NCBI GenBank assembly: GCA_021372475.1
Contig: JAJFUJ010000139.1
Location: forward strand, 9,535 to 73,534
Source: Chloroflexota bacterium
GTDB taxonomy: Bacteria; Chloroflexota; Anaerolineae; UBA1429
DNA: 64,000 nt
Direction: 5' to 3'
Shown: positions 2,711-50,989 of the stretch, in pieces
Position numbering within the stretch: the stretch's first letter is position 1
Layout of the letters: every line of letters starts with the position of its first letter
Made by a program: the position numbers and the translations under genes
The notes under the pieces: model-generated
Seen by the model: only the letters and a program-made list of their open reading frames with translations
What the model was told of the DNA's origin: nothing
Database searches by the model: none

Positions 2711-2753
2711 CTGCATCAACCTCGTTGTAAATCCCGCCTGTTTAGGTTGATTT

Positions 2754-4073
2754 ATGCGTTTTTACCTTGTTACCCTCGGGTGCCCCAAAAATAGCGTTGA
2801 TAGTGAGATGATGGCATCGCTGCTGCGCCAGGACGGCCACCAGCCAGTGAGTGATGCCCGTCATGCGGATGTATTAATCGTCAATACCTGCGCTTTTATC
2901 GCCGATGCGCGCAGCGAGTCATTCTCTGCCATCCATGAACTGGCCCTTCGCAAGCGGCGCTGGCAGCGTTTGGTTGTGGTGGGCTGCATGGTCGAACGCG
3001 ATTCGGATGAAATTAAGCGCCGCGCCCCCGCCGTCGATGCGCTGCTTGGGGCCCGCTCATGGCCGCAAATCCGTCAGATCGTAGCCGGTTTCCAGGAAGC
3101 GCGCCCAGGCTCAGCCTATGTTCCCGCGGAGATACAGGAGCGCGCCCTGGTGACTTCCGTCACCCGCATTCGGCAGGATGGAGCCAGCGCATATATCAAA
3201 ATCGCCGATGGCTGCGATGCTTCCTGCGGTTATTGTGCAATTCCGCTTATCAAAGGCCCACAGCACAGCAAACAGCCTGCCGATGTTCTCCGCGAAGCCC
3301 GCGAACTAGCGGCGCAAGGGGTACGCGAGATTACCCTGATTGCTCAAGATACCACGGCTTATGGGCGCGACCTGGGATTTACCGATGCCCTGCCGGATCT
3401 GGTCGAGACGCTTAGCTGTGCATTGCCGGAGCTCCTGTGGTTGCGCATCCTGTATGCTTATCCTCAGCATATAACGCCGCGGCTTATCGCGTGCATAACA
3501 GCCATGCCAAACGTATGCCATTATCTCGACGTTCCCCTGCAGCACGGCGCGCCAAGCGTGCTGCGGCGCATGCGCCGTTCGGATAATATCCCAGACATGC
3601 TGCAGACGATTCAAGCGCTGCGTGAGGCTGTGCCCGATATCGCGCTGCGCTCGACCTTTATCGTTGGTTATCCTGGTGAGACCGATGATGAATTCGAACA
3701 GCTTCTGGAGTTTATGCAGCTAATCCACTTTGATAATGTAGGCGTCTTTCGCTATTCACGGGAGAGAGGGACTTTTGCTGCCGATTTGCCAGGCCAGGTA
3801 CCGGCGGAGGTTGCCGAAGAACGCTTCCAGCGAGCAATGCTCGCGCAGCAGCAGATATCGCTTCAGAATAATCTTGCTCAGGTTGGGCGCCGTATGCAAG
3901 TGCTTGTCGAAGGCGCATCCGGCGGGCTAACGATTGGTCGTTGCTACCGGCAGGCGCCGGAAATAGACGGCCTGACCCTGATATCGGGTAGCGCGCAAGC
4001 GGGCAGTGTGCTTTCGGTAGCTATCGTCAGTGCGCAGGAATACGATTTGCGGGGAGAGCTTGCGGCGACATAA
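2754..4073 (+). CDS. rimO: Ribosomal protein S12 methylthiotransferase RimO (MiaB-family radical SAM)
   Basis: N-terminal MTTase domain (YLVTLGCPKN, three-Cys region). Radical-SAM CxxxCxxC appears as CDASCGYC. A C-terminal TRAM-like domain is present. Length 439 aa. Confidence 0.85.
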   Translation: MRFYLVTLGCPKNSVDSEMMASLLRQDGHQPVSDARHADVLIVNTCAFIADARSESFSAIHELALRKRRWQRLVVVGCMVERDSDEIKRRAPAVDALLGARSWPQIRQIVAGFQEARPGSAYVPAEIQERALVTSVTRIRQDGASAYIKIADGCDASCGYCAIPLIKGPQHSKQPADVLREARELAAQGVREITLIAQDTTAYGRDLGFTDALPDLVETLSCALPELLWLRILYAYPQHITPRLIACITAMPNVCHYLDVPLQHGAPSVLRRMRRSDNIPDMLQTIQALREAVPDIALRSTFIVGYPGETDDEFEQLLEFMQLIHFDNVGVFRYSRERGTFAADLPGQVPAEVAEERFQRAMLAQQQISLQNNLAQVGRRMQVLVEGASGGLTIGRCYRQAPEIDGLTLISGSAQAGSVLSVAIVSAQEYDLRGELAAT

Positions 4074-9380: not shown

Positions 9381-10715
9381 TCAGAAAGTACGTTTACGGG
9401 TGCTGCGCCGCACCGGGCCGGTGTGTTTACTCGCTCCGCGGTAACTCGGGAGATCGAGGTCTATAATTGTGCATACTTCAGCATCTTCCAGGCGGCTCTT
9501 TAACCGTTCATCCAAGGATTCCCAATCTGCTCGCGAGACCGTCAGCACCGTTGGTAAGCCGATCTGGTAGCGGTGGTTAAGAATCTGAAACAGCTTTTCC
9601 CGCGCCCAAGGCGAAGTGTTTTGAGTGCTCAGGTCGTCCAGCACAAGCAGCCTGGCTCGGCGTACCTCATTGAAGCGCTGGTCGTAGGATACGGCACTGC
9701 CGGGTTGGAAGGTCGCTCGCAGGTAGTCCAGCAGGTCAGCTACCACCACAAACAGCACCGATATACCCGCCCGACTGACATGATTGGCAATTGCGGCGGC
9801 CAGGTGGGTTTTGCCTACGCCGTACGGTCCGCGGATGAGCAGCCAATTTTGGGGCGCCTCGCTGTATTCCTGGACATCTTGCATCGCTTTTTTTAGGGCT
9901 TGTTGCTGGTTGGCATCCAGGTCGGCACGCCGGTCTTTGAAAGCATCCATGGTCATTTCCTGATAGCTGCTCAGGGAGCCAAAAGAGTCGTTTTTACCTT
10001 TGATGCGGTGGTCAACGCCGTGGAGCGGGACTATGACTACCATATTCTGATCGCGCAAACGCGAGGCTAAACGCGGATCCAGATCGTCCAGCATCTGGTT
10101 CGTAGTGATAACCGTGGGCAGTTCGGCATTGTAACGGTAGTTGAGCAGTTGGTAAAGTTTTTCGGCGGCCCAGGGAGTTGCATTCTGAGTGCCGAGGTCA
10201 TCCAGGATGAGCATGTCAATGCTGCGCACCTGGTCAAAGCGCTCATCATAGGTGGTCGTGCTGTTAGGAGCGTAGGCTGCCCTGAGATAATCGAGCAGGT
10301 CAGGCACTACCACAAACAGCACCGGTTGAGCCTGTTCGAGCCGATAGTTGGCTATCGCTGCAGCGAGGTGGGTTTTTCCGCTGCCGTATGAGCCGGTGAA
10401 AACCAGCCAGCCGTGCGGGTTCCTGGCGTAACTTTGAGCCTCTGAACACGCCATCTGCAGCGACATCGCTATTTCAGTGGCTCCGCTGCCGTCGACTTGG
10501 AACGTTTCAAAGGTCATTTTCTGCAAGTACTGCAGGTTGCTGGCCTGTCGCAATGCCTCGATTCGCCGGCGTGTGTATTCCTGCCGTTTGCATACGCAGG
10601 GTTGTGCTTTGCCGAAACGCGGGTCGCCAACAGGGACATCCGCACGCACGTAACCCATGCCGTGGCAGTACGGGCACTCCTCCGGTGTTTCTTGTTGAGG
10701 ATCTTCCATTGACAT
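9381..10715 (-). CDS. Helicase-loader-like protein with an N-terminal zinc ribbon and two tandem DnaC/DnaI/IstB-type AAA+ modules
   Basis: CxxC...CxC at the N-terminus (CPYCHGMGYV...CVCK). Module 1: GSYGSGKTHLAAAIANY ... MLILDDLG ... ITTN. Module 2: GPYGVGKTHLAAAIANH ... LLVLDDLS ... TVSR. Both have intact Walker A/B and sensor regions. It lies immediately downstream of dnaB and a DnaD-like gene. Confidence 0.8.
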   Translation of the reverse strand: MSMEDPQQETPEECPYCHGMGYVRADVPVGDPRFGKAQPCVCKRQEYTRRRIEALRQASNLQYLQKMTFETFQVDGSGATEIAMSLQMACSEAQSYARNPHGWLVFTGSYGSGKTHLAAAIANYRLEQAQPVLFVVVPDLLDYLRAAYAPNSTTTYDERFDQVRSIDMLILDDLGTQNATPWAAEKLYQLLNYRYNAELPTVITTNQMLDDLDPRLASRLRDQNMVVIVPLHGVDHRIKGKNDSFGSLSSYQEMTMDAFKDRRADLDANQQQALKKAMQDVQEYSEAPQNWLLIRGPYGVGKTHLAAAIANHVSRAGISVLFVVVADLLDYLRATFQPGSAVSYDQRFNEVRRARLLVLDDLSTQNTSPWAREKLFQILNHRYQIGLPTVLTVSRADWESLDERLKSRLEDAEVCTIIDLDLPSYRGASKHTGPVRRSTRKRTF

Positions 10716-10724
10716 AGGCTGCTA

Positions 10725-11366
10725 TTACTCTTGCTTTCGCCCGGAAATGGACCAGCGCTTCAGGATAGCCTCGATGTAGCGCCAGTTACGCACGTTTCTC
10801 TCCACCGCGATTTGAAAAGCCTCTCTAATCCAGTTATCTGGATAGGTCTTGCTCGCCTCAAGCAGTTGCTCGCTAATGAGCGGCGTCAGTAACCCTATGT
10901 TCTCCTCATACAAGGTAAAGATGGAGGGCTTGGCGTGTTGAATATGCGGCTCAACGACACGACCCTCAGTCTCCAATACGAGCGTACCTTCCTTAACTTC
11001 CCGGATGGCGGCGCGCCCCTGAGGGGTATTAAGAAACAGGTAAGTTAAGACACTGTCATTGGCGTTGATATCCAACTGCAAAATTGTGCCGCGGGTTACC
11101 GCTCGCGTCACTGCCTGATGCAGTGCATCAAGCCTGGTCTCATCCCCAAGCGTGGGCAGCCCGCTCAAGAGCGGGCCTTCGCTCTCCAGTTCACTCATCA
11201 CAAGGTAGCGAGGCGAGCCCTTTTGATGATACAAAGCCCAAAACATATAGATAGTAAGCTTGAGTTCGGCAAGGTCGTCTATTTCTGACAGCAGGTCGGC
11301 AAAAAATAAATCCGGTACCGGCGTATAGTTCAGGCGCCCCTCTGGAAACCCAGTGAACGTTTTCAC
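10725..11366 (-). CDS. DnaD-domain replication initiation/primosome protein
   Basis: C-terminal DnaD-like motif (…[17 protein letters not shown]). Its start overlaps the dnaB stop by 4 nt (ATGA), so the two are translationally coupled. It sits between the helicase and loader genes. Confidence 0.65.
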
Positions 11367-37618: not shown

Positions 37619-37954
37619 AAGAGCTCCTCTTGAGAGTGCTAATCATTGCCTGTATATCACAAATCCGGATGGTCGGCAAGCATACTGGTTGGAAATGTCG
37701 GCATCACAATGGTAAATGCTAGCACCAACTGATTACTAAACAGTTATTATGGCTGGCTTAGGATTTGCGACCATAACCAATCTTGCAACATATGGGTCCG
37801 AAATCATATACAACCTGTATCAGCATCTCGAGATGAAAAAGTTGAAACATAAAGCCGAGTGATTATCTACTCGGCTCTTTATGTCTGTACGCCCAGGGTA
37901 GGGTCGAACGCTCAACAGGCGGATTTGTAGTACTCACAGAGCCTCAATTAGCAA

Positions 37955-38149
37955 ATGTTGCCAAATATGGCAGCTCAGATTGACGGACTCTACCCTCAAA
38001 AGCAAGTCCGTCATTTCCGCACGACGAACAATCTGGAACGTCTGAACCGCGAGATACGCCGGCGCACTCGGGTGGTGAGTATCTTTCCCAATGAAGCTTC
38101 CTGTCCGCCTCTGGCCAGCGAGATCCTGATGGAGGTCAACGATGACTGA
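37955..38149 (+). pseudogene. C-terminal remnant of an IS256-family (Mutator-type) transposase
   Basis: The 64-aa ORF ends ...TTNNLERLNREIRRRTRVVSIFPNEASCPPLASEILMEVNDD, matching the conserved IS256 transposase C-terminus. No upstream catalytic part remains. It sits in an AT-rich non-coding stretch (37620-38376). Confidence 0.7.
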
Positions 38150-38376
38150 AAAAGCGGTCGAGTCTATTTAACTATGGAATCTGTAATACCTCAGGGACTA
38201 GCCTGAATGAATCTGCAGAAAGAGTTGCACAATCCAGGGTTTGCTTCGAACATTGTTCTCCTAGTTCAATTATCATTTAAAGGAACAACACTCCTTGCGG
38301 TTTACTGGGCTAACGGCTACAATAAAAATACAGGGCATAGGTGGTTTCTTGATAAGGGCATACCTTAGGAGGCCAT

Positions 38377-39381
38377 ATGTTAAACCTGGTAACCGGCGCA
38401 ACCGGCTTTATCGGAAGTCATCTTGTCGAGGCGCTTTTGTTGCGCGGAGAGCAAGTCCACGCATTGGTGCGCCCAACAAGTAACGCGCACATGCTAAGGG
38501 GTCTTGGTGCCGATGTGCACCTTGGAAATCTCGACGACCAGGCGACACTCATGGCGGCTGCAGAAGGGGCTGATCGAATCTGGCACTGTGCCGCATTGGT
38601 GAACGATTGGGGCCTGCCGGATGCCTTTGTCCAGGCGAACGTGGATGGCGTTCGCAACATTTTGGCCGTGGCTACGCGGGCAAAGGTGAAGCGTTTTATC
38701 TTTCTCAGTACCAGCGATGTGTATGGATTCCCGGGTCGACCCACCCTTGAGAGCGAAAAGCCGGCGCCGCGGGGGCTGCCGTATGTCGATACTAAGGTCG
38801 AAGGTGAAATGCTGGTACGAAATCACTTCCTCAAAGTGGGGCTGCCTATCACCATCATCCGCCCAGGCACGGTCTATGGTCCGCGCAGTGTTACGCTCGT
38901 GCTGCCGATTGTTCGCGCGCTGCTGGAGCGCCGAGGATATACAATTGACCGAGGCCGCCACCTGGCAGGTTTGACCTTTGTTGGGAATCTGGTGCAGGCC
39001 ATGTTGCAGGCAGGGGATGTCCCTGAAGCAGTAGGTGAAGCCTATAACATCACAGACGGCACCAGTATCACCTGGGCGCAATTTATCCATGCCCTGGCTG
39101 ACGCCATGCAAGTACCGCATCCAGAACGAAACTATAGTCACTGGCAGGCGTATGCACTGGCATCCTTTCTTGAGAGCACCTATACCCTGCAGGGGAAAAA
39201 TGGAAGGCCGTGGATAACCCGGCTGGCGGTTGAGCTTATGGGCACCAACCAGGATTTTCCGATCGAAAAGGCACGCAAGCAGTTGGGATATCGCCCTTGT
39301 GTATCGTTCGAAGACGGCATCAAGGCGACGGTTGCCTGGCTGCGGCAGGCTGGACATATTGAGCTTGAATCTGATACATAG
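38377..39381 (+). CDS. NAD-dependent epimerase/dehydratase (extended SDR)
   Basis: Rossmann motif TGATGFIGSHL plus a Y..K catalytic dyad region. Confidence 0.8.
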   Translation: MLNLVTGATGFIGSHLVEALLLRGEQVHALVRPTSNAHMLRGLGADVHLGNLDDQATLMAAAEGADRIWHCAALVNDWGLPDAFVQANVDGVRNILAVATRAKVKRFIFLSTSDVYGFPGRPTLESEKPAPRGLPYVDTKVEGEMLVRNHFLKVGLPITIIRPGTVYGPRSVTLVLPIVRALLERRGYTIDRGRHLAGLTFVGNLVQAMLQAGDVPEAVGEAYNITDGTSITWAQFIHALADAMQVPHPERNYSHWQAYALASFLESTYTLQGKNGRPWITRLAVELMGTNQDFPIEKARKQLGYRPCVSFEDGIKATVAWLRQAGHIELESDT

Positions 39382-39406
39382 TCTGGTGGAATGGAGCAAT
39401 AGTGAT

Positions 39407-40528
39407 ATGAGAGTCGCAGAGATATCCAGAGCAGCGGTGCTGCCGCAGGCCGGCCAGCCGGTAGAGATACGCGAGTATCCGCTCCCCAGAATGGAGGACG
39501 GGGCAGTGCTGCTGCGCACCAAATACAGCGAGGTGTGTGGCACAGACGTCCACCTGCAGCACGGGCATTTGTCGGGGGTACCGTATCCCATCATCCCCGG
39601 GCATGTGAATGTCGGCGAAGTGGTCGAGACAGCCGGCCATCCCACCGACCAGGACAACCAGCCTATTAGTGTAGGGCAATTGGTTACTTTCCTTGATGTC
39701 AATGAAACCTGCGGACGCTGTTGGTACTGTACGGTGGGCAAGGCATCCACACGCTGCCCGCACAGGCGGGTTTACGGCATTACCTACAGCGCCGATGAGG
39801 GATTGCTTGGCGGGTGGTCGCAGTTCATCTACCTAAAGCCGGGCGTTAAAATACTACCGCTCCCAGAAACGGTGCCGGCCGAACGCTTTATCGGCGCTGG
39901 CTGCGGTTTGCCGACAGCTGTGCACGCTCTAGAGCGCGCACAGGTAATGCTGGGTGATACCGTGGTCGTCCAGGGCAGCGGTCCGGTAGGGCTGACGGCC
40001 GCCATCCTGGCGCAGTTGAGCGGCGCCACAAAAGTGATTGTAATTGGCGGTCCAGCGCCGCGGCTGCAGGAAGCCTTGCGTATTGGCGCCGATGAGGTAA
40101 TCGATATTACCCGGTTTGATATCAAGTCGCGTAAGGAACGCGTGCTGGAATTGACCAGCGGCCGGGGCGCCGACATAACCATCGAAGCCAGCGGAGCGCC
40201 CCAAGCTGTCAATGAAGGATTTTCTTTTACTCGCGATGCGGGACGCTACGTCATCGTCGGGCAATATACTGACCTGGGCGATATTCGGATCAATCCGCAC
40301 CTCGATATCAACCGCAAGCACCTCGATATCCGCGGCTGCTGGGGCAGTGATTTCAGCCACCTTTGGCGTGGAATGCGCATAGTAGAAAAATACGGCGAAA
40401 GATATCGCTGGGAGCAGTTCATTACGCGCCGTTATGGGTTGGACGAGGCCAATCAGGCGCTCGATGATGTGGCGCATTGGCGTACTGTTAAAGCCTTGAT
40501 CGACCCGTGGCAGCGCAGCGAGAGATAA
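39407..40528 (+). CDS. Zn-dependent medium-chain alcohol/polyol dehydrogenase (MDR family)
   Basis: Zn-binding CGTDVH..H and a structural-Zn Cys cluster (CGRCWYC..G....C). Rossmann motif GSGPVG. Start placed at ATG 39407; the six-frame ORF starts at 39230. Confidence 0.8.
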   Translation: MRVAEISRAAVLPQAGQPVEIREYPLPRMEDGAVLLRTKYSEVCGTDVHLQHGHLSGVPYPIIPGHVNVGEVVETAGHPTDQDNQPISVGQLVTFLDVNETCGRCWYCTVGKASTRCPHRRVYGITYSADEGLLGGWSQFIYLKPGVKILPLPETVPAERFIGAGCGLPTAVHALERAQVMLGDTVVVQGSGPVGLTAAILAQLSGATKVIVIGGPAPRLQEALRIGADEVIDITRFDIKSRKERVLELTSGRGADITIEASGAPQAVNEGFSFTRDAGRYVIVGQYTDLGDIRINPHLDINRKHLDIRGCWGSDFSHLWRGMRIVEKYGERYRWEQFITRRYGLDEANQALDDVAHWRTVKALIDPWQRSER

Positions 40529-40531
40529 ACT

Positions 40532-41071
40532 GTGGCCGGAGAACTTGCTCTTTATATCAGCGCAGCTCATGAGCAGGATGCCGAGTGCGAGCAAATCGGG
40601 CGGCTGTTGGCGGAGAGACTCGTCACAATTCGCTGGCGCATCTGGCGCACGCCGTTGTATGGGAACATGAACCCGGACCAAGATAGCATTGCGGCCAGTC
40701 CGTTTTACGTCATCCTGCTGGGCACAGACCTGGTCGCGCCGATGGGCGTCGAGTGGCAGATTGCCGCGCATTCAGGGGTGTTCATCATTGCGTTTCGCGA
40801 TGAAACTTGCTCGCCTTCACCTGCGGCTGACTATTTTGCACGCAATACGGAAATTGCCTGGCAACCTTATAAAAAATCTGATGAGTTTATCCTGGCATTT
40901 GAACACATCCTCCTGACTCAGCTCATCAATGGGACGCCGGGCTACGGTCTTGCTCTGGATGATATTGAACTAATCTCCGCCCGGCTGCAGACACTCGAAT
41001 CTCTGGCGCCGGCCCCTCAGGGCACGCGTCAAGAGGCCGGTCAAGGTGGAGTCATCCTTACTGCGGGTTAG
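40532..41071 (+). CDS. Hypothetical protein (possible TIR-like/DUF4062-like fold)
   Basis: GTG start 4 nt after the dehydrogenase stop. Pattern [10 protein letters not shown]...[19 protein letters not shown] weakly resembles the TIR βA/βC/αC segments. Confidence 0.4.
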
Positions 41072-42125
41072 AGCACTCCGCTGTCTGGTCAAAGCGTACT
41101 TCGGATAGTTGGCGTAGCCTATCGGCCGCAGTTTCAGGCGTAAGGTCACGCTGAGCATTTGCCAGCATCTCGTATCCAACCATAAACTTACGCACCTCTG
41201 CCGAGCGTAATAGTGGCGGATAAAAGTGCATGTGCCAGTGCCACTCGCTGTGGGGCGCCCCGTCAGTCGGCTGCTGATGTATTCCCATCGTATAGGGGAA
41301 GGAGATACTAAAGAGATTATCATAACGAGTCGTCATGCGTTTGATTATGTTTGCCAATGCCTGGCTTTCGGCACCGTCCAATTGGTCAATCGATGCCAGG
41401 TGGCGCCGGCTGAGCACCATTATCTCATACGGCCATGCAGCCCAAAAGGGCACCAGCGCAACAAAGTGGTCGTTCACGCAGACGATTCTTTCCCCCTTGC
41501 GTTCCTCCAATGCTAGGTAATCGCACAATAGGCAAGAGCCCTTGTGTTCATGATATTGTAATAAAGCCTTACGTTCCTGAGCAGGGATATGCGGTACTGT
41601 GGCGTTGGCCCAGATTTGACCGTGAGGGTGCGGATTGCTGCAGCCCATCATCGCCCCCTTGTTTTCAAATATTTGGACATAGTTAATATCCGGCCGCTGG
41701 CCAATTTCAACGTACTGCTGCTGCCAGACCTCAACCACCTGTAGGATCGCAGATTCACTCATCTGCGGTAGGGTCAGATTGTGGCTTGGAGAAAAGCAAA
41801 CAACACGACACAATCCTGATTCGCTTTTGGCAATCAACAGGTCATCTTCCCGCACTTCACCATGCGGGGTATCTGGTAGTAATGCCATAAAGTCGTTGTC
41901 AAAGACAAAGGTTGCCTGATATTGCGGATTGACAGCTCCTCCCGCGCGGCGATTGCCTGGGCAGAGATAACAATCCGCGTCATATTCTGGGCGTGATTCT
42001 ATATTCGGTTTCTCACGCTGCCCCTGCCATGGACGCCTGGCGCGGTGCGGCGAGACTAGAATCCATTCATCAGTTAGAGGGTTATATCGCCTGTGAGGAT
42101 GTCCAATAAGGCTAAATAGGGCCAC
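41058..42125 (-). CDS. galT: Galactose-1-phosphate uridylyltransferase (class I GalT, HIT superfamily)
   Basis: Zn-binding Cys/His (CYLCPGN) and active-site motif [12 protein letters not shown]. Confidence 0.85.
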
Positions 42126-42269
42126 TCGGCTCCTTTCAACATGATGCTATTTATTAATGAATGAAGCATAAAGCTGGAGTCATGCTTGTCAAACGTGCTA
42201 ATTGACCGGCAGCCAGCTAAGCGCTAATATCACCCATCAATATATCTTTTACACTCAACGGAGTATGGA

Positions 42270-42884
42270 ATGTTGTGCCCGGAATGCAAAATTCATGTGG
42301 ATGGGGGGGCCCATTGTCCACATTGTGGAGAGCCTGTACCTGAGCGAGAGACCTTCGGCGGTCAGGGAGGGCACTATTTTATGGTGCTTGTCTTGCTCAG
42401 TGTATCTGTATTTGCAATATTTTTCATTTTATCAACGCTAAGCACGGGTTTTAGCGCATCAATTAACAGGATATTTATCAGTCGTTGGAACTGGTTGTAT
42501 ATCTCGTTGTTCCTTCTTCCAATAGGGATTGGTTTATACACTTGGAATACGTTGCGCAGCGAGGAAATCACAGTTACAGATGCTTTTATCTCGAAGCAAT
42601 CTCGCTGGGGTAATCAGCAGTTCATGTGGGCGCAAGTCGAATCCTTTCACCGCATTTCCCTTTTACCTAAAAGGCGTTGGATTAATCGAGTCCTCTCACT
42701 CAGGCGCACGATATCGCGTGAACGCCTGGTCTGGCATTTACCTCCGCAGGCTTATGAGCTTGTTGGATACCAGGATGAGAATAGTGAGCCGTCTGTTATT
42801 CGCCTGGAACCCGGCACCATCGACGAATTACCCTGGCTGCTGGAGCTTATTCAAGAGCATGTCGGTCCACCGAAAGATGAGTGA
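42270..42884 (+). CDS. Zinc-ribbon membrane protein, function unknown
   Basis: N-terminal CPECK...CPHCG zinc ribbon, two TM helices, and a C-terminal soluble domain. Confidence 0.5.
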   Translation: MLCPECKIHVDGGAHCPHCGEPVPERETFGGQGGHYFMVLVLLSVSVFAIFFILSTLSTGFSASINRIFISRWNWLYISLFLLPIGIGLYTWNTLRSEEITVTDAFISKQSRWGNQQFMWAQVESFHRISLLPKRRWINRVLSLRRTISRERLVWHLPPQAYELVGYQDENSEPSVIRLEPGTIDELPWLLELIQEHVGPPKDE

Positions 42885-43012
42885 GTTCGTTATGGCTGGT
42901 TTCTATATCCTGCTCATTTATTGAGCCATTCCGGTACCTTTAATGGCGCAATACTTTTGCCTTCTCTTGTGCAGCCGCCTTCGCATTTTCCAGGATTATG
43001 CAGCATGTGTTG

Positions 43013-44515
43013 TTACAGTATGACAGGGTAATACTGTCCTTCGAGCCAATAACCGCCTGAGATGCAGCGATAGTTAGCGGGAGTATCTGCGGGAAGTGGA
43101 ATCGGCAACGTTATAGATTTGCCAGGAGCAAGTGACAGGATAGGCCCCGCGACGACAGAACTCAAGGTATCGTTATTCTGATTTTGCAACAGGACTTCGA
43201 ACCAGTCTGCATTAGCCGTGCTGGAACCGATATTGCGCAGGGTGATGTATATCATTTTGTTCTGGCGGATACCAATATTCTCCACGACGAGCTGCGCCCC
43301 CTCGACAGTAAATGAGTGTTCAATCGTCCCAAGGCTTACCTCGCCCACGTCTGTTACGCCATCTAGATGCTCAAGTTTCCATTCGCCCACCTGGGTCACA
43401 GCAGATGTTTCTAGATACAAGCATGTGAGTTGATGGGCTGCCAAAAGAACAGGGTCTGTCGCAGCATACCATTCCGCTCCGTCTGGCTGCGTGCCGACCA
43501 GCCGGAGCTGCTGGTAGGCTAAGTCGGTGTCCGAGTTATTAATTAGCCATAATTCTAGTGACGCGTGCGCACCCATTTCTGAAACAGCAGCGCTGGATAC
43601 CCCGACTATTGCGACTGGCGAAGGGGCAACCTGCCAACTCAGCGCTGCCGGCAGCTTAGATACGCTCTGTTCGCTGACCAGTGAAAACTGCTGGATAGTC
43701 CACGCGCCTGCCTTATCAGGCAAGTAATCCAGATTCACCGTACAAGTGTCGTCGGCCGCAATCAACCAATCCCCGCTGTAATTCACCTGACGCAGCTTGC
43801 CGTCCGGATCTACTAGAAATACCTGAATCAGCTTCAGTTGAAGCGGACTGGCCTCGTTATTACGCAACGGTAACGTCAGGGCTATGGAACGAGCAAATTT
43901 CACGTTGATCATTGAGATGGCAGGTGTGGCTGCCCAGGTAACCTTGGAAAAAGGTTTTTCGTTCGTGACAACCGTCCCTTCGGCAAGGTTTTCCAGGGGG
44001 ATTCCAAAAAATGAGATCAAGTCACTCGCTTGTGCCGCCGACCAGCTTCCGTCGCGCCGCACATAAAGCTCCAAGTGTAAATGCGGCTCGTGTGCACCGG
44101 ATGTGCCTGAATAACCCAGGAACTCGCCTTGAGTAACCTGCCTGGTCTCGGTAATTGCATCACGCAAATGCGCCATACGGATTTTCCAATCGCCGCAGGT
44201 CAAGTCGATGTAGTTGCCTAAACCGTATAAAGACGGGCGCGTATCAACCAGGTATATTGCTTCGCCATCTGCCGGAGCGTATAGCGGGGTGCCTTCAGGT
44301 AATGCAAAATCGACCGCAAACCCAAGGTTCGCATTGGATGCCCAATGGTCGTCCGGTCCCCAGGTAATCGAATATTGGTCGCCAGTGGCCCACGGTAAGA
44401 TAAACCTCTCAGCTTGCTCAGCCAAAGGGTCGTCAGCGCGGACAACATGTGGCAAGGTCAGGGCAACAGTCAACACTATCAACAGCCATCGGGAGGCAGC
44501 CCAATGTAGTTTCAC
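43013..44515 (-). CDS. Secreted M23-family (LytM-type) metallopeptidase with a C-terminal beta-rich domain
   Basis: Signal peptide. M23 motifs (H.G.D; GYSGTSGAHEPHLHLELY). Confidence 0.75.
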   Translation of the reverse strand: MKLHWAASRWLLIVLTVALTLPHVVRADDPLAEQAERFILPWATGDQYSITWGPDDHWASNANLGFAVDFALPEGTPLYAPADGEAIYLVDTRPSLYGLGNYIDLTCGDWKIRMAHLRDAITETRQVTQGEFLGYSGTSGAHEPHLHLELYVRRDGSWSAAQASDLISFFGIPLENLAEGTVVTNEKPFSKVTWAATPAISMINVKFARSIALTLPLRNNEASPLQLKLIQVFLVDPDGKLRQVNYSGDWLIAADDTCTVNLDYLPDKAGAWTIQQFSLVSEQSVSKLPAALSWQVAPSPVAIVGVSSAAVSEMGAHASLELWLINNSDTDLAYQQLRLVGTQPDGAEWYAATDPVLLAAHQLTCLYLETSAVTQVGEWKLEHLDGVTDVGEVSLGTIEHSFTVEGAQLVVENIGIRQNKMIYITLRNIGSSTANADWFEVLLQNQNNDTLSSVVAGPILSLAPGKSITLPIPLPADTPANYRCISGGYWLEGQYYPVIL

Positions 44516-44524
44516 GGCTAACCT

Positions 44525-46285
44525 CTAGCGACAAATTAACACAGGGAACCATGCTTCGCGCAGGACGAGATCCACTGTACTGCCGAGAAATGCTTTCAAC
44601 AAGGGCTTGTATCCATATCCGCCCATAATGAGTATGCTGGCGTTTTCCTCGCGCATGATACTTAGGATAACTTCATGCGGCTGGCCGGACTCGAACCGTG
44701 ATTCAATTGTCGTTTTGGCCGAATGTCCTACATATTGCCATGCAGCATCCAGCATCTCACGGGAGGTGCGCTGGCCGGCTACGGTTAAAATGACGCCCTC
44801 CAGCCGCCAGCGCGAGATGAGTTCGCGCATAACAAAGAGCGCTTCACGCGACTTGGGGCTGCCGTCATAAGCCAGTAATAGCTTTTGAGGGGCTCGGGTC
44901 AAAGTGCCGGGCACAGCCAGGATTGGCCGTGCGGCTTTTTCAGCAACACCATGGAAAATAGTGCCGAGAGGGACATCAGCCCATTGGCCATGCACTTTGC
45001 GCTGGTTAATAACAATCAAATCCGACCAGTGAGCCTTCTCAATGATGCGTTGCTCGATATCGCCAACCTCAAGACTGGTAGTAAATGGAATGCCCATCCC
45101 CTGGCAGCGGAAGGCAAACTCCTGGAGGATCATTTCACCTTGCTTGTGTGCTTCGGGGGTATCGTTCAGCAGCACGTGCAGCCCGTGCAATACGCCGCTC
45201 TCGCGGCGCGCAATCTCTCCGGCCTGGCTGAGTGCCAGCCATCCGGTTTCTGCGCCGCTTACCGCCACCAAGATGTCGCGGAACAGGCTGGTTACAGTCT
45301 CTTGATCCAGTCTCTCTTCCCTCCACGTACCTGCGCGCGGGCCTGCCTCTAATTGGCTGGGAGCCAGCCTATCCAGGAGGTTGACCCAGAACCGTTCCAG
45401 GACCCTTTGCGGTCGGCGGCTAAAACGGGATACAAAGTCGAGCGCAGCCTGTTCGGGCGTGATATTGTGTTGATACCTCTTGGATAGATAGTAAGCATGA
45501 TCGATAACCCACAGGTAAAGATCAGTTTCTGTTTGGCTTGGGAAATCGCGATTAAGGTGCTTCTTACGAATGGCTTTGACGAAGGGCAGATAGGTGTTGT
45601 CATACCAGTCGATAACAGCTTCTCCCCAACTGCTGGGTTGGGCGCGTTTCTGGTCGATAAAGTATCTATGTACATAGATATGATCGAGCAGCCGCGCGTA
45701 GGAATCCGGCCTAGTTGCGCGGATATTGGCACCCGGACGAAGTTCATCCAGTCTGGTTGCCTTGATGAAATCGCTGTAGGGACCGAGCAGGTCCAAGTCC
45801 TCCATGGTTAGCTCGGCAGTGACGGGCACGCGGCTCTCAACCTCGATCACTTCCGCATCGATATATGTCTGCCCCTGGTGTCTGGCAACCGACACGCGGT
45901 GATGCCCGTCCACAACAAAATAGGCCTCGCCCACTTTATAGAGCTTAATTGGCGGGAGGTACACTCCGCGGATATTGGCGCTATCAACGCTCATCCATTT
46001 GGAACTGGAATGCTGTTGGGTGGGGGCGAAAATGCGGTCAAAATCACCGCTGCGGTCAAGGCTGCCGATGATCTGCGCGATGGGCACAGCCTGAATTCCG
46101 CGGTAACGTTGGTGGGTCATCTCAACCACGCGCTGCAAATAGCTAAAGGGAACCAGACCGCTGCTGCGGCCTGTTAACCGTTCGCGGAAGCGCCGCGTGC
46201 GCGCACCTCGCAAAGCCTGGTCATAATGCCTGCGGACTAGCACTTCCATAGGCATCTGTTCGGAGTTGGAATCTGATTTTCTCAT
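44525..46285 (-). CDS. ParB/Srx-like domain protein fused to tandem universal-stress-protein (UspA) domains
   Basis: ParB-like motif KVGEAYFVVDGHHRVSVARHQG. Two C-terminal USP-like α/β modules (…LLAYDGSPKS…; …ILIMGGYG…). The true start is uncertain (about 46250-46285), because the listed 698-aa ORF runs into the MITE at 46328-46555. Confidence 0.55.
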   Translation of the reverse strand: MRKSDSNSEQMPMEVLVRRHYDQALRGARTRRFRERLTGRSSGLVPFSYLQRVVEMTHQRYRGIQAVPIAQIIGSLDRSGDFDRIFAPTQQHSSSKWMSVDSANIRGVYLPPIKLYKVGEAYFVVDGHHRVSVARHQGQTYIDAEVIEVESRVPVTAELTMEDLDLLGPYSDFIKATRLDELRPGANIRATRPDSYARLLDHIYVHRYFIDQKRAQPSSWGEAVIDWYDNTYLPFVKAIRKKHLNRDFPSQTETDLYLWVIDHAYYLSKRYQHNITPEQAALDFVSRFSRRPQRVLERFWVNLLDRLAPSQLEAGPRAGTWREERLDQETVTSLFRDILVAVSGAETGWLALSQAGEIARRESGVLHGLHVLLNDTPEAHKQGEMILQEFAFRCQGMGIPFTTSLEVGDIEQRIIEKAHWSDLIVINQRKVHGQWADVPLGTIFHGVAEKAARPILAVPGTLTRAPQKLLLAYDGSPKSREALFVMRELISRWRLEGVILTVAGQRTSREMLDAAWQYVGHSAKTTIESRFESGQPHEVILSIMREENASILIMGGYGYKPLLKAFLGSTVDLVLREAWFPVLICR

Positions 46286-46327
46286 ACGTAAAGCCAGTAT
46301 AACATAGGCCGTACATTCTACGTAATC

Positions 46328-46555
46328 GAGGGTGTGGAAAAAGTATCCCAATGGAGACCCCCCGAGTATCTGAAATGACAGGGTTGCGAACTCGCATAGC
46401 ATTCCCACGCAAACAGGAATCCATCCGAGTCTTGTTATTATATGATATACCCCACTATATATCAGATTGATACTGGATTCAGGCCTGCGCCGGAATGACG
46501 CTTCCTGTTTCCTAATGGGCAAGTATAAGAACAGACCTCCTTTTTCAATGCCCTC
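46328..46555 (-). mobile_element. Miniature inverted-repeat element, copy 3 (reverse orientation)
   Basis: TIRs GAGGGTGTGGAAAAAG ... CTTTTTCAATGCCCTC. Flanked by GTAATC / GTAACC (a possible 6-bp target-site duplication with 1 mismatch). Confidence 0.8.
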
Positions 46556-46841
46556 GTAACCAACGGTTGACAAACCCAGGGTTCCTATTATTATATAGTT
46601 ATAAGGCGTTGATGAGGACAAGTAACTCTGCTTGCTTATTCAGCGAGCCGCCGTTGATGCAAGGGCGGCTAACCAAGTAGAGCGAATTCCACCTCGGAGC
46701 CGGGCACGATGAGTGCTCCCGGGAGCTTCCGTTACCGAGCATAATACGAGGCCGGCGTGTAAACCCGGCGCACTTAGGTGGCACCACGAAAGCAAACGCT
46801 TCTCGTCCTAACGAGAAGCGTTTTTGCGTTATGAAAGGAGC

Positions 46842-48119
46842 ATGATGATTGAACTGAACTACATCCGCGAGCATCTAGATGAGGTCAGGCAGGCACTGCG
46901 CGACCTGAATACCGACGCACCACTGGATGTTATCATCGAGATGGATGAACGCAGGCGCGCAATTCTATCTGAAGTAGAGGTGCTGCGGGCTGAGCGCAAC
47001 CGCGTGTCCAAGGAAATGCCAACCATCCGCGATAAAGATATCCGCCAGAGCATGGCCGAAGCTATGCGCCAGGTGGGCGATAAAATCAAGGCTCTAGAAA
47101 ATGAGCTGGAACCGGTGCAGCAGCGCCTGGATGATGCGCTGCTGCATGTCCCCAATCTGCCTGATAAGAGTGTCCCACTCGGGCCTGGTGAAAGCCATAA
47201 TATTATTGTGCACCAGGACACGGATCTGCCTGTATTCCCATTCGAACCACTGCCGCACTGGGATATTGGAGAGGCGCTGGGCATTCTGGATTTCGAGCGC
47301 GGGGTCAAAATCTCGGGCACCCGTTTTTACCTACTCAAGGGCGCAGGCGCCCAATTGCAGCGAGCGCTGATATCTTTTATGCTCGATGTACATACTCGAT
47401 ATCAAGGATATACAGAGATTTATCCCCCTTATCTCGTACGCCGTGAATGTTTGTATGGCACCGCCCAGCTCCCGAAATTTGCTGATAACCTGTATATGGA
47501 TACTGAGGATGACTTGTGGCTGATCCCGACTGCCGAGGTGCCGGTGACGAATATGCACCGTGGTGAGATCCTTGATGAAGGGCAACTTCCGCTCAATTAT
47601 TGTGCGTACACCGCATGTTTCCGCCGCGAAAAGATGTCTGCCGGACGCGATACACGCGGCATCAAACGCGGCCATCAATTCGATAAGGTCGAGATGGTCA
47701 AGTTCGTCAAGCCTGAGACCTCCATGGACGAGTTGTTCAGCCTGATCGATAATGCCGAGGATATCTGCCGACGCCTAGGCTTACCGCATCGGCTTGTGCA
47801 GATGTGTACGGGCGACCTTTCGTTCTCGGCGGCGGTCAAGTACGATGTTGAAATCTGGGCGGCTGGCTGCAAAGAGTGGCTGGAGGTCTCGTCGTGCAGC
47901 AATTTTAAGGATTTCCAGGCTCGGCGCGCCAATATCCGCTATCGCCCGACTGACGGCGGTAAACCACAATGGGTGCACACGCTCAACGGCTCGGGTTTGG
48001 GCTTGCCGCGTGTGCTTATTGCCGTCATCGAAAATAACCAACGGCAGGATGGCAGCATCGTTATCCCTGAAGCACTGCGCCCGTATATGGGGGGACAAGA
48101 GGTGATTGAGCACCTGTAG
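46842..48119 (+). CDS. serS: Seryl-tRNA synthetase
   Basis: N-terminal coiled-coil and a class II core (motif 2 FRRE, motif 3 GSGLGLPR). AAAGGAG Shine-Dalgarno before ATG 46842. Confidence 0.93.
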   Translation: MMIELNYIREHLDEVRQALRDLNTDAPLDVIIEMDERRRAILSEVEVLRAERNRVSKEMPTIRDKDIRQSMAEAMRQVGDKIKALENELEPVQQRLDDALLHVPNLPDKSVPLGPGESHNIIVHQDTDLPVFPFEPLPHWDIGEALGILDFERGVKISGTRFYLLKGAGAQLQRALISFMLDVHTRYQGYTEIYPPYLVRRECLYGTAQLPKFADNLYMDTEDDLWLIPTAEVPVTNMHRGEILDEGQLPLNYCAYTACFRREKMSAGRDTRGIKRGHQFDKVEMVKFVKPETSMDELFSLIDNAEDICRRLGLPHRLVQMCTGDLSFSAAVKYDVEIWAAGCKEWLEVSSCSNFKDFQARRANIRYRPTDGGKPQWVHTLNGSGLGLPRVLIAVIENNQRQDGSIVIPEALRPYMGGQEVIEHL

Positions 48120-48195
48120 TGCCCGTGAGATTGACAGTAATGGCCCTCTCTGCTATACTCTGCAAGCTGGACGGAGAGGGCCATCTAGGTGTGAT

Positions 48196-48281
48196 GGAGG
48201 GATGGCAGAGCGGTTTAATGCGGCGGTCTTGAAAACCGTTGATCGCAAGATCCGGGGGTTCGAATCCCTCTCCCTCCGCCT
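48196..48281 (+). tRNA. tRNA-Ser(UGA), long variable arm
   Basis: Acceptor GGAGGGA/TCCCTCC, anticodon loop CTTGAAA, T-loop GGTTCGAATCC. Manual fold. Confidence 0.8.
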
Positions 48282-48302
48282 TGGTTGGTTTGGCGTGCAC
48301 TA

Positions 48303-48396
48303 GGGGAGGTGCCGGAGTGGTCGATCGGGGCCGCCTGCTAAGCGGTTGTAGGGCCTTTAAGCTCTACCCAGGGTTCGAATCCCTGCCTCCCCGCCA
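48303..48396 (+). tRNA. tRNA-Ser(GCU), long variable arm, CCA encoded
   Basis: Acceptor GGGGAGG/CCTCCCC, anticodon loop CTGCTAA, T-loop GGTTCGAATCC, 3' GCCA. Confidence 0.8.
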
Positions 48397-48445
48397 TTGT
48401 TAGGGATTTGATGTTTGCTGTGCATCGTACTATTATTTGATTATT

Positions 48446-48518
48446 GCGCCCGTACCTCAATGGATAGAGGACCGGACTACGAATCCGTCTGTTGGGCGTT
48501 CGACCCGCCCCGGGCGCA
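48446..48518 (+). tRNA. tRNA-Arg(ACG)
   Basis: Acceptor GCGCCCG/CGGGCGC, D-loop TCAATGGATAGAG, anticodon loop CTACGAA, T-loop GCGTTCGACCCGCC. Confidence 0.8.
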
Positions 48519-48636
48519 CAGATATTGCAAAAGCCGATAGTGGTATCAAGATTCCTACTATTATCGGCTTTAGATTAGCAAATGACCGCTTTATGATGCA
48601 ATAGCGAATGCTGTTTCTTTTTAGCAGGTTCTCTGC

Positions 48637-49746
48637 TTATGTTAGTTCGACAGCCCCGAATGGATCAAGTAACTCTATCTTTCTCAAGTAGAGTCCTACC
48701 AGCCACAATTTTATGGGAGTTCGTTCTGCAAGGCGTTGGTAAACATCACATATCAACGCGCTGTTAGGCCGGCATCCGCTAACCCAAAGGCGCATTCCTA
48801 CAATAAAATCACGCACCCATTCCTTACCCCCCGCAATACTCGAGTAGGTATCCTCACATTGCAAAAAGCCCGGGACAATGTCTCCGTTCTCCAGCGGGTG
48901 GCTGGGCAGGGATACGGCCCTTTTCTCCTTGCCTACGCACCAAAGCAGCCGTTCAATAAAACGGAAAGCCTTGGGTGCGCAAAGCCACGAATCATGTATG
49001 AAACTCTGAAACCATGACCAATCCGGACATATCTCAGACAGGCGTCTCTCGATTTGTTGAACCTCTGGGACTTGCAGCTCCGCAAAATATGGATCATAGA
49101 ATCTAGGATTGCCATAGTGCCCCTGCTCGTTTCCGCCGCCGCACTGCGTGTCGCCCAAGAACTGATCGCGACAATAGAGGTTCCTGTGATCGTCATCCCA
49201 AACGAGCGACTTGATCCACCAGCGCTGCCGGTGGACTATCCTGCGAAGTAAAAGCTCCTTGAGCTCTGACCGCTCCCCGAGCACTTCCCATAGAGCTGCA
49301 CATACCTGCTGCCAGTTGATATCCGCATTGCCGCGCATGGAGAGTTCAAGAGCCGCCTGTCGAGGTACAGCCCCTGCGAGCCAGGCGTCCAGACAGAAGA
49401 CATAATCTAGCATGCGTTCTTTCCGCTCTCTACTCGCGGTATAGCAGCCATGCACGAACGTTTGTGGAGTTTGTTTACCAATAGCATCCAGAACATCCAG
49501 ATACGGGGAAGGGAACGCCCAGTGCGGACAGAAAGGAGGGAAATTGATTGATCTTTCCACGATATCCTGTGCCCAGCGAGGTACAGGTTCCAGGCGCTTT
49601 TCCTGCTCGAAGAGGCACCGTAGGGCTTTATCGCATTGCAATTCCGGACAACGATCCCAACCTTGATCGTAAGGTGTATACGCCCAGCATCGGCTGGAAA
49701 TGCTGTCCAGATAAGCCTCTCTGAACCATGGCATCTTTTCAGTCAT
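48637..49746 (-). CDS. Hypothetical Trp/Cys-rich protein (orphan; sole ORF of a tRNA-Arg-flanked islet)
   Basis: 369 aa with about 18 Trp (about 5%) and about 14 Cys. No recognisable motif. Flanked by AT-rich sequence. Confidence 0.5.
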   Translation of the reverse strand: MTEKMPWFREAYLDSISSRCWAYTPYDQGWDRCPELQCDKALRCLFEQEKRLEPVPRWAQDIVERSINFPPFCPHWAFPSPYLDVLDAIGKQTPQTFVHGCYTASRERKERMLDYVFCLDAWLAGAVPRQAALELSMRGNADINWQQVCAALWEVLGERSELKELLLRRIVHRQRWWIKSLVWDDDHRNLYCRDQFLGDTQCGGGNEQGHYGNPRFYDPYFAELQVPEVQQIERRLSEICPDWSWFQSFIHDSWLCAPKAFRFIERLLWCVGKEKRAVSLPSHPLENGDIVPGFLQCEDTYSSIAGGKEWVRDFIVGMRLWVSGCRPNSALICDVYQRLAERTPIKLWLVGLYLRKIELLDPFGAVELT

Positions 49747-49825
49747 TTTGATTCTCCACCGCTCAACCAGTGATTATGCAGAACTAGACCCGCATAAGAT
49801 ATCTTGATTCGTTTCTTAATAATAT

Positions 49826-49870
49826 ACTACGAATCCGCCTATTGGGCGTTCGACCCGCCCCGGGCGCACA
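49826..49870 (+). repeat. Direct repeat of the 3' 45 nt of tRNA-Arg(ACG) (att-like)
   Basis: ACTACGAATCCGcCTaTTGGGCGTTCGACCCGCCCCGGGCGCACA matches tRNA positions 48476-48520 at 43 of 45 nt. Confidence 0.85.
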
Positions 49871-50095
49871 GTAGCCTAAATCCGATTGACGGACACTTGT
49901 TCCGTTAGTCGGATTTTCGTTCTCAATAGACAGATTTACTTTCTCCCTACTAACGGACTCCCTCACAAAGCTTGCCTGAATATTGCCGTAGTTTTGCCTA
50001 AAACGACTTTCAGGAGACCGCTACTTGGCAGCCGCGCTAGTTGGAGTAAAATCATACATACTAATCCAGCATTCATTTTCCACCGAAGGCGTATA

Positions 50096-50989
50096 ATGAA
50101 GGCAAGCTTGATTCAAGCATTACAAAATGGTGATATCATCGTTGGCGATGGGGCTATGGGCACCACCCTGCAAAAACAGGGATTGCCGGCTGGCGTGTTG
50201 CCCGAATTGTGGAATATAGAAAACCCCCAAGTAATAAAGCAGGTTCACCTCGACTATATTGCGGCAGGAGCCCAGTTCATAACCACCAACACATTGAACT
50301 GCAATATACCGATGATGCGGGAAGCTGGGATCGAGAAACGCCGTCTGGAGCTGGCGCGCGCCGGCGCTAGAATCGCGCTCGAGGCCGCCGCAAGTCAGGT
50401 TTGGGTAGGGGCCTCTATCGGGCCGACCGGCCAGCTACTGGAGCCGCTGGGTTCGCTGACCATTGACGAGCTCGAAACAGATTACCGCCAGCAGATGGAG
50501 GTATTCGCGGAAACCGGAGTGGACTTTCTCAAGATGGAGACCCATCAGGATGTTGAGGAGGCTTGCGCAGCCGTACGCATGGCCAAGCGCTATACTCATC
50601 TGCCGGTATGGTGCACTTTTGCTTTTAACACGCGCGGCAGGACGTTGATGGGCTTGCGTGCTGCGGATGCTGCGCGACGTCTGCAGGAAGAAGGGGCCGA
50701 TATAGTCGGCGCGAACTGCGGAGAGGGACCAGCAGCGATTGAAGCTGCCTTGCGCGCTATGCGCCCGGCAACTAGTCTGTTCCTCGCAGCGCAATCCAAC
50801 GCGGGCATCCCCCAGCTTGGAGAAGGCGGGCATACTATTTGGGACGTTGGCCCTGAGCAAATGGGCGTATACGCCAAGAGCTTTATTGCTCTGGGAGCAC
50901 AGCTCTTGTCGGGTTGCTGCGGCACAACCCCCGCATTTATTGCTGCACTCGATCGAGCTGTCCACAATATCGATGCACACTCAGATTGA
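50096..50989 (+). CDS. Homocysteine S-methyltransferase domain protein (MmuM/BHMT/MetH-N-like)
   Basis: VGDGAMGT N-terminus and a zinc-ligand region GCCGTTP near the C-terminus. Start at ATG 50096; the listed ORF begins at 49886. Confidence 0.75.
   Translation: MKASLIQALQNGDIIVGDGAMGTTLQKQGLPAGVLPELWNIENPQVIKQVHLDYIAAGAQFITTNTLNCNIPMMREAGIEKRRLELARAGARIALEAAASQVWVGASIGPTGQLLEPLGSLTIDELETDYRQQMEVFAETGVDFLKMETHQDVEEACAAVRMAKRYTHLPVWCTFAFNTRGRTLMGLRAADAARRLQEEGADIVGANCGEGPAAIEAALRAMRPATSLFLAAQSNAGIPQLGEGGHTIWDVGPEQMGVYAKSFIALGAQLLSGCCGTTPAFIAALDRAVHNIDAHSD

Follow-up and report, generated by a model that had tools for sequence, protein, structure and literature searches.

The tRNA-Arg locus and its direct repeat

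The DNA analysed here is a stretch of 64,000 nucleotides (the window, to which all unqualified positions refer) of contig JAJFUJ010000139.1 from a Chloroflexota bacterium (assembly GCA_021372475.1), in which an intact tRNA-Arg(ACG) gene is followed by an islet with a single gene, closed off by a second, displaced copy of the 3' half of the same tRNA. The tRNA-Arg gene is the last of the cluster serS / tRNA-Ser(TGA) / tRNA-Ser(GCT) / tRNA-Arg, and the same cluster is present in the related contigs L039-L042 and L046. The features of the locus are listed below.

46824-48119: serS, ahead of tRNA-Ser(TGA)
48196-48280: tRNA-Ser(TGA), upstream of tRNA-Arg
48303-48396: tRNA-Ser(GCT), upstream of tRNA-Arg
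48446-48519, plus strand: tRNA-Arg(ACG), called by ARAGORN and by Rfam (RF00005, 57.4 bits); intact, the integration target, its 3' half being repeat copy 1
48476-48521, plus strand: repeat copy 1 (attL-like), the 3' half of the functional tRNA-Arg from the anticodon loop onwards
48530-48571, no strand assigned: hairpin T1 (inverted repeat I5), in the interval that separates the 3' ends of the tRNA and of the open reading frame (ORF); fold -20.7 kcal/mol, z -4.5
48637-49746, minus strand: cargo ORF, 369 aa, Cys/Trp-rich, the sole gene of the islet
49747-49825, minus strand: ORF upstream region, 79 nt, presumed promoter and 5' untranslated region; right end of the inserted DNA
49826-49871, plus strand: repeat copy 2 (attR-like), displaced tRNA-Arg 3' half
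49872-49951, plus strand: T2 flank, a strong hairpin with U-tract after copy 2; fold -24.8 kcal/mol, z -5.5

A repeat search returned copies 1 and 2 as a direct repeat of 46 nt, identical at 44 of 46 positions and with a spacing of 1350 nt. An earlier reading of the window, made without database searches (the sequence-only reading), had given this repeat as 45 nt with 43 identities; the repeat is real and extends one base further in the 3' direction. It begins at tRNA position 31/32 (ACTACGAA, in the anticodon loop) and extends 3 nt beyond the discriminator base; positions 43 and 46 of the tRNA are the two that differ. When up to three mismatches were allowed the two copies were the sole sites found, and since none was expected from 100 shuffles the presence of the repeat by chance is excluded. 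No tRNA was scored by Rfam at copy 2. The locus therefore holds an intact tRNA gene and a displaced fragment of it, in direct orientation on a common replicon, which is the arrangement that Islander looks for.

Content of the islet

The islet measures 1,350 bp and runs from 48476 to 49825. Besides the minus-strand ORF, whose 369-aa product contains 4.9% Trp and 4.3% Cys, in keeping with its earlier description as about 5% Trp and rich in Cys, the DNA between the repeats consists of 115 nt with a strong hairpin on one side and 79 nt on the other; no coding debris was found inside it. Hairpin T1 is probably a bidirectional terminator brought by the islet, and it is also present, with base changes, in contig L037, the second occupied site described below. 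The 79-nt upstream region contains no consensus sigma-70 match, and is identical at 39 of 44 positions to the matching stretch of L037. Folding showed that every repeat copy, including the third one described below, has its own strong hairpin behind it. The islet has no compositional anomaly, because both the GC content of the ORF (z -0.6) and its GC content at third codon positions (GC3; z -0.9) lie inside the host range.

Empty sites in relatives

Relatives were located via their seryl-tRNA synthetase (SerRS) and the corresponding contigs were then fetched. In L040 (GCA_054641895.1, SerRS 86% identical), which like L041 comes from a metagenome-assembled genome of the Anaerolineae, the intact tRNA-Arg is followed directly by CAG and then by AACCCTAAATCCGATTGACGGACA...GTCGGATTTTCG, a hairpin and flank of the T2 type; the T2 flank of the window is 80.5% identical to L040 2090-2166 over 77 nt. 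In L041 (SerRS 82%) a similar hairpin stands immediately 3' of tRNA-Arg. It is clear, then, that in these two relatives the tRNA is joined to what is the distal flank in the window, which is the empty attB that Islander looks for. The closest relative, L039 (SerRS 95%), has a different hairpin after tRNA-Arg, here called T1', and also lacks the islet, whilst L042 and L046-L050 (SerRS 75-76%) have another terminator followed by glycoside hydrolase and sulfatase genes, again with no islet. The ORF is at this site in none of L039, L040, L041, L042 and L046-L050.

The direct repeats thus mark a true insertion into the 3' half of tRNA-Arg, which bears out the view of the sequence-only reading that site-specific insertion into a tRNA 3' end had occurred here. 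An ancient tandem duplication of the tRNA is ruled out, because in the relatives the intact tRNA abuts the distal flank directly. The same reading had allowed that the ORF might turn out to be a core gene in related genomes, and this is not so: it is carried by one of seven related sites.

Several further observations concern this site and its neighbourhood. Conservation of the tRNA cluster among the relatives exceeds 90%. The 3' flank of tRNA-Arg is different in each of the clades examined: it has an FGGY kinase gene in the window, an ABC-F gene in L040, and glycoside hydrolase and sulfatase genes in L041, L042 and L046. Past the empty tRNA-Arg site of L040, a stretch of about 1.2 kb (2170-3350) contains no called gene and does not resemble the window. 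A near-consensus promoter-like site precedes the tRNA-Ser/Ser/Arg cluster at 48131-48159 on the plus strand (TTGACA, a 17-nt spacer and TATACT with TG), and the sequence 'gattgacag...ctatactct' is kept upstream of the tRNA cluster in L039-L042. In all three tRNA genes the encoded CCA end is missing or incomplete.

A third repeat copy at the edge of an inversion

When the search was relaxed, a third copy of the tRNA-Arg 3' half came to light in the window, which was absent from the earlier account. Its surroundings are as follows.

37845-37884, minus strand: hairpin T1', following copy 3 in the tRNA sense and resembling the hairpin 3' of the intact tRNA-Arg in L039
37885-37931, minus strand: repeat copy 3, a degenerate tRNA-Arg 3' half with 6 substitutions and a 1-nt insertion
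38015-38149, plus strand: fragment of an IS256-family (Mutator) transposase, the C-terminal 44 codons and stop; Pfam PF00872 (Transposase_mut), positions 334-374 of 379, E 7.4e-11, 42 bits
38292-50016, no strand assigned: inverted block of 11.7 kb (epimerase ... serS, tRNAs, islet, copy 2, T2), with junctions at 38291/38292 and 50016/50017

Copy 3 has the same left boundary, ACTAC, as copies 1 and 2; it now stands in inverted orientation, 10.5 kb away from the tRNA. With its hairpin it matches the uninterrupted site of the closest relative: window 37851-37931 and L039 5851-5933 are 81% identical over 84 nt, half-tRNA included. All three copies share the start ACTACGAA/ACTACAAA at tRNA position 31/32, that is, in the anticodon loop. 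The anticodon loop is a recognised crossover sublocation of tRNA-targeting tyrosine integrases and is the one used in 2083 of 3919 Islander islands, the other sublocations being the T loop and the T/acceptor junction (PMC4383910). The insertion sequence (IS) fragment lies between copy 3 and the left inversion junction, ending about 140 nt before the junction, and the remainder of the IS is missing.

The block 38292-50016 is inverted relative to both of its flanks, because the intergenic region between the epimerase and SMT genes of L043 (same assembly as L039) is split onto both junctions: its positions 1-107 match window 38398-38292, in inverted orientation, and positions 110-221 match 50017-50129. 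The gene order of the relatives (L041, L043, L044, L045 and L046, with L044 from the same assembly as L040) is DegT(-), SMT(-), then epimerase(+) ... M23(-), Usp(-), serS(+) and the tRNAs, then ... amidohydrolase(+), cupin(+), PRK(-); that of the window is PRK(+), cupin(-), amidohydrolase(-), FGGY(-), then epimerase(+) ... serS, tRNAs and islet, then SMT(+), DegT(+). The inversion is thus seen by comparison with five or more related assemblies, and inverted repeats were not found at either of its junctions. Recombination between the tRNA-half copies was considered as its cause and is ruled out, because both junctions lie outside all three copies.

When the inversion is undone the order becomes tRNA (copy 1), T1, ORF, copy 2, T2 and about 65 nt, then, across the junction, about 360 nt with the IS fragment, copy 3, T1' and the conserved downstream block. 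The three copies are now all direct and are ordered outward from the tRNA, as in a tandem accretion array, and the remnant between copies 2 and 3 amounts to about 550 bp, IS256 fragment included. Copy 3 adjoins the block of FGGY kinase, amidohydrolase, cupin and PRK genes that is found downstream of tRNA-Arg in relatives. In accretion arrays successive integrations push older att sites outward (PMC5704250; bioRxiv 10.1101/2020.12.28.424599), and the place of copy 3 in the reconstructed order would be that expected for the outermost att site of such an array. Copy 3 is the outermost, oldest and most decayed of the copies and retains the flank of the uninterrupted site of the closest relative. 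The presence of this degenerate copy, beside an IS256 fragment and at the edge of an inversion, shows that the site has been hit repeatedly; the tRNA-Arg gene is a hotspot that has been used, and rearranged, more than once.

A second occupied site

One other occupied site was found, on the Logan contig L037 (SRR22334941; 1,399 nt), which reads from the 3' part of tRNA-Ser(GCT) through a spacer, tRNA-Arg and a T1-like hairpin into the ORF on the opposite strand; the two ORF products are 83% identical. The roughly 100 nt of backbone on this contig are 90% identical to L040 and 78% to the window, and its tRNA-Arg has the L040-type base 26 and T-stem pair. With less than 31 nt between its diagnostic positions, L037 is unlikely to be a chimera of k=31 assembly.

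Between the window and L037 the ORF shows a nonsynonymous divergence (dN) of 0.089 and a synonymous divergence (dS) of 0.48, with dN/dS 0.18 and a third-position identity of 0.76. For serS, dS between the window and L040 is saturated and third-position identity is 0.48, whereas between the window and its closest relative, L039, third-position identity is 0.74, similar to that of the ORF between the window and L037. From the dN/dS ratio the ORF is under purifying selection, and because its dS is 0.48 where that of serS is saturated, it appears less diverged than the two backbones on which it is found. Furthermore, each clade holds an islet-free member, L039 in that of the window and L040 in that of L037. 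These two facts together favour the lateral arrival of one minimal unit at one site in two lineages.

Search for an integrase or parent element

No integrase or recombinase domain was found in the 45 ORFs of at least 200 aa in the window, whose Pfam matches are to housekeeping and metabolic domains only, and a search of the window with an integrase motif pattern was also negative. The islet is too small to hold an integrase, and its sole ORF matches no Pfam, NCBIfam or PHROGs model, so that the integrase which Islander expects within an island is missing here. The earlier description of the islet as integrase-less is therefore borne out. No recombinase, relaxase or type IV secretion system domain is present in the islet gene, and attL and attR are both retained; loss of the genes for integration and transfer and retention of both ends are features of a cis-mobilisable element (CIME).

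The search was extended outwards with the tRNA-Arg 3'-half pattern. No viral attP carrying it was found in a scan of IMG/VR, and a metagenome scan at the Joint Genome Institute (JGI) gave a single match, an ordinary locus of the empty type (L042). No parent integrative and conjugative element (ICE) or integrative and mobilisable element (IME) was found in the window, in the relatives, in the one JGI metagenome scan or in IMG/VR. Thus, of the two things that the sequence-only reading had proposed to look for in relatives, the empty tRNA-Arg site is there and the larger integrase-bearing element was not found.

Origin of the islet

We think it probable that the islet is an integrase-less, CIME-like integrative islet at a tRNA-Arg(ACG) hotspot, which arose when an integrase, acting in trans or encoded by a tandem neighbour since lost, inserted a small circle. 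Integrase-mediated insertion of a circle is favoured because the three copies have identical anticodon-loop boundaries, because each has its own terminator and because the empty site exists. An identical boundary in the anticodon loop is the signature of recombination by a tyrosine integrase at an att site centred on the anticodon (PMC4383910). In this scheme the circle would have carried an attP-like segment, consisting of the tRNA-Arg 3' half from the anticodon loop and its own T1, together with one gene and the upstream region of that gene. On recombination with the chromosomal tRNA-Arg gene the incoming DNA would have come to provide the working tRNA with its 3' half and terminator, as it would still do now, and the original 3' half (copy 2) with T2 would have been displaced 1,350 bp downstream. 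The recombinase would most probably be a tyrosine integrase encoded elsewhere, either on a lost co-resident or tandem element or at another location in the genome. Copy 3 would be the trace of an earlier integration with the same boundary, and the DNA between copies 2 and 3 would later have been gutted by an IS256-family element and split by the 11.7-kb inversion. Present-day excision would show as an empty attB junction that runs from the 5' part of tRNA-Arg through one 3' half to TAGCCTAAATCCGATTGACGG, or as a circle junction of the form ...GTTTCTTAATAATAT + ACTACGAATCCG...GCGCACAG + ATATTGCAAAAGCCGATAG. The sequence-only reading had offered two possibilities, a decayed element that retained one cargo gene and a minimal mobilisable islet; the divergence of the coding sequence leans towards the second.

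A number of points weigh against this account. No integrase with the required specificity was found anywhere, so that we infer the catalyst rather than observe it, and a RecA-dependent single crossover of a circle through 46 nt of homology would give an identical structure. L037 is the sole other occupied site known, and the contig stops about 35 nt before the expected copy 2, leaving the right junction unseen. When the non-coding DNA of the islet is compared with the backbone spacer between the window and L037, the matches and mismatches (90/24 and 34/13 respectively) do not differ significantly (p = 0.41); therefore the case for lateral spread comes from two different genes in two genome pairs. 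The T-stem pair in the 3' half of the tRNA is of the host clade in L037 and of the window clade in the window, a pattern that is not simply predicted if the 3' half is borne by the element and the crossover is in the anticodon loop. Lastly, the family of the cargo protein is not otherwise associated with tRNAs, with flanking repeats or with mobile elements. None of the explanations considered here accounts neatly for three details: the T stem of copy 1 is that of the host clade at both occupied sites, position 43 is C in both displaced copies and T in all intact genes, and T2 is closer to the flank of L040 than the backbone spacers are to each other.

Alternatively, the islet may be the fixed fossil of a larger element that had an integrase (prophage, ICE or IME). 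Such an element would have inserted once, internal deletions would have reduced it to one cargo gene, and the immobile residue would have been inherited vertically, with the islet-free relatives having lost it by recombination between the direct repeats. Decay to CIMEs is a documented route (PMC5704250), the integrase is absent from the window, and the locus has plainly decayed, as the IS256 fragment, the inversion and the degenerate copy 3 show; the host-like GC and GC3 of the ORF, and the failure of the non-coding comparison to set the islet apart from the backbone, also count in its favour. Despite this we regard it as a possible but rather unlikely history. There is no debris between the repeats, where 115 nt and 79 nt surround an intact gene with its own hairpin; the same minimal unit is found on the backbone of another clade (L037); the dS of the ORF is low beside the saturated serS of the two clades; and because both clades contain islet-free members (L039, L040), at least two precise losses would be needed.

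Host homologous recombination alone, by a single crossover of the Campbell type, in which a circularised fragment recombines through the 46 nt shared with the tRNA, or by a double crossover through the tRNA cluster and copy 2 with T2, is to our minds improbable. The strong conservation of the tRNA cluster among relatives and the 80% identity of the T2 flank between the window and L040 speak for it, the host-type copy 1 of L037 is as expected for a crossover within or beyond the tRNA, and no integrase was found. However, three copies with exactly the same left boundary, at a canonical integrase sublocation, are present, and the first such duplication cannot arise in this way; efficient RecA recombination also has a lower limit of homology to which 46 nt is close, and the host-type T stem in L037 would require the crossover to fall in the last 12 nt or so of the tRNA. 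We give very little credence to a further proposal, in which the two-module, Cys/Trp-rich 369-aa protein would itself be a new site-specific recombinase or homing enzyme, able to place its own cassette of 1.35 kb in the segment of tRNA-Arg from the anticodon loop to the 3' end. It is the sole gene product of a unit that appears to have moved, its fold has no known relative, one distant family member has an N-terminal HNH_3 nuclease domain, and the family is scattered over phyla. On the other side, none of the 36 other family loci has flanking repeats or behaves as a multicopy element, and none has a tRNA next to it save L006, a coincidental exception that lacks a tRNA fragment; searches of plasmids, phages and IMG/VR gave no family member; and the other fusions, to HEAT repeats and sugar-isomerase-like TIM barrels, do not point to work on DNA.

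Relation to known elements

Integrase-mediated insertion of a small circle would place the islet close to the CIMEs left in streptococci by the decay of ICEs of the ICESt1/ICESt3 type and of IMEs (PMC5704250). Like the islet, these are bounded by attL and attR sequences that come from the target gene's 3' end, have no genes for integration or transfer, belong to a former tandem (accretion) array at one att site, and could in principle be mobilised by the integrase of a related element. The islet differs from them in being far smaller (1.35 kb, one gene), in its uncultured Chloroflexi/Anaerolineae host, in having no parent ICE/IME or cognate integrase found, and in being known from sequence alone. 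The islands of Islander (PMC4383910; Williams 2002, cited there) likewise have an intact, regenerated tRNA, a displaced direct 3' fragment and an empty site in relatives, and the identity block of the islet, starting from the anticodon loop, corresponds to attP type A of the Islander scheme; however, these islands require a tyrosine integrase gene, which the islet lacks, and the islet is far below typical island size. In the tycheposon islands of Prochlorococcus (bioRxiv 10.1101/2020.12.28.424599) successive integrations at one tRNA also push older elements outward, leaving partial tRNA copies and integrase-free cargo in a variable region beside the tRNA gene. Unlike them, the islet has no recombinase or replication module of the tycheposon type, belongs to another phylum, and is part of a locus that retains just three copies and some 1.9 kb of inserted DNA.

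The islet is a small and fairly ordinary remnant of a mobile element whose kind is known. It provides a clean, very small case of tRNA genes as landing pads in uncultured Chloroflexi, at a single site where two or more integrations, the insertion of an IS and an inversion of 11.7 kb have left their traces. If the islet does move as a 1.35-kb unit with an integrase acting in trans, few of the integrative cassettes described at tRNA genes would be smaller, and single accessory genes would be shuttled between diverged lineages without machinery of their own.

The cargo gene and its family

The sequence-only reading had called the cargo gene an orphan with no recognisable domain. The second part of this description stands, since no model of Pfam, NCBIfam, PHROGs or PADLOC matches the product and there is no sequence match to it in the Protein Data Bank (PDB); the first does not, since at least 225 homologous proteins were found at E<=1e-3 in 90% clusters, mostly full length and 45-83% identical. 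They occur in Chloroflexi, KSB1, Latescibacterota, Planctomycetota/Phycisphaerae, Armatimonadota, Hydrogenedentota, Bacillota and one metagenome-assembled genome (MAG) of Nitrososphaerota. The family is rare: in an exhaustive profile search of 1.84 billion proteins its members formed just 173 clusters at 50% identity.

The AlphaFold model of the protein is all-alpha and confident (pLDDT 89, pTM 0.86), and Foldseek searches with it against PDB and BFVD returned nothing below E = 1. It is made up of two tandem helical modules of about 110 residues (hhalign 95.9%, E 6e-9). Conserved residues include Cys, His and Trp, among them C20, W21, H75, C101 and C256, and from the Cys and His our guess is that the protein is a soluble metal-binding enzyme or binding protein. 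In rare fusions (P0241, P0345, P0348, P0363) the family module is combined with HEAT repeats or with a xylose-isomerase-like TIM barrel (AP_endonuc_2); one distant member has it joined to an HNH_3 nuclease domain.

The suggestion of the sequence-only reading that cargo of this kind might be a defence or anti-defence factor finds no support. No family in PADLOC-DB matched at E<=1, so that the product resembles no known defence protein there; neither is there a match in PHROGs. No neighbour is conserved across 38 family loci, the only recurrent ones being short-chain dehydrogenases/reductases (SDRs), at 5 loci and at varying distance, and no family member was found on PLSDB plasmids, INPHARED phages or IMG/VR contigs.

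A general association of the family with tRNA genes was also considered and is rejected: a tRNA lies within 200 nt at one of the 38 loci, L006 from Bacillota, and there no fragment of tRNA-Tyr or tRNA-Met was found beyond the far side of the gene. No meaningful flanking direct repeats were found around family members elsewhere. A repeat at L023, from a Phycisphaeraceae MAG (9613-9760 and 11150-11300), is rejected as an att site; the family protein there has an extra N-terminal domain of about 88 aa, and its upstream region and the start of this domain are duplicated before the next gene, which shares the domain.

The cargo is a functional, selected gene of an uncharacterised and structurally unmatched family, and it poses a more open question than the islet. 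A family that is rare and strongly conserved, with a confident fold unmatched in PDB and BFVD, is a reasonable target for structural and functional work. More than one copy may occur in a genome: tandem paralogues, 41% and 48% identical to the query, lie at L009 8874-9983 and 10001-11146 in one Planctomycetota MAG, and two copies on separate contigs are present in one Phycisphaerae MAG (L002, L015) and in one Armatimonadia MAG (L005, L022). Genes for glycoside hydrolases of family GH172 (L034 6402-7565 and 15167-16231) stand around the 69%-identical homologue P0008, and several other contexts of the family are carbohydrate-related (DegT, NTP transferases), which may be a weak hint on function.

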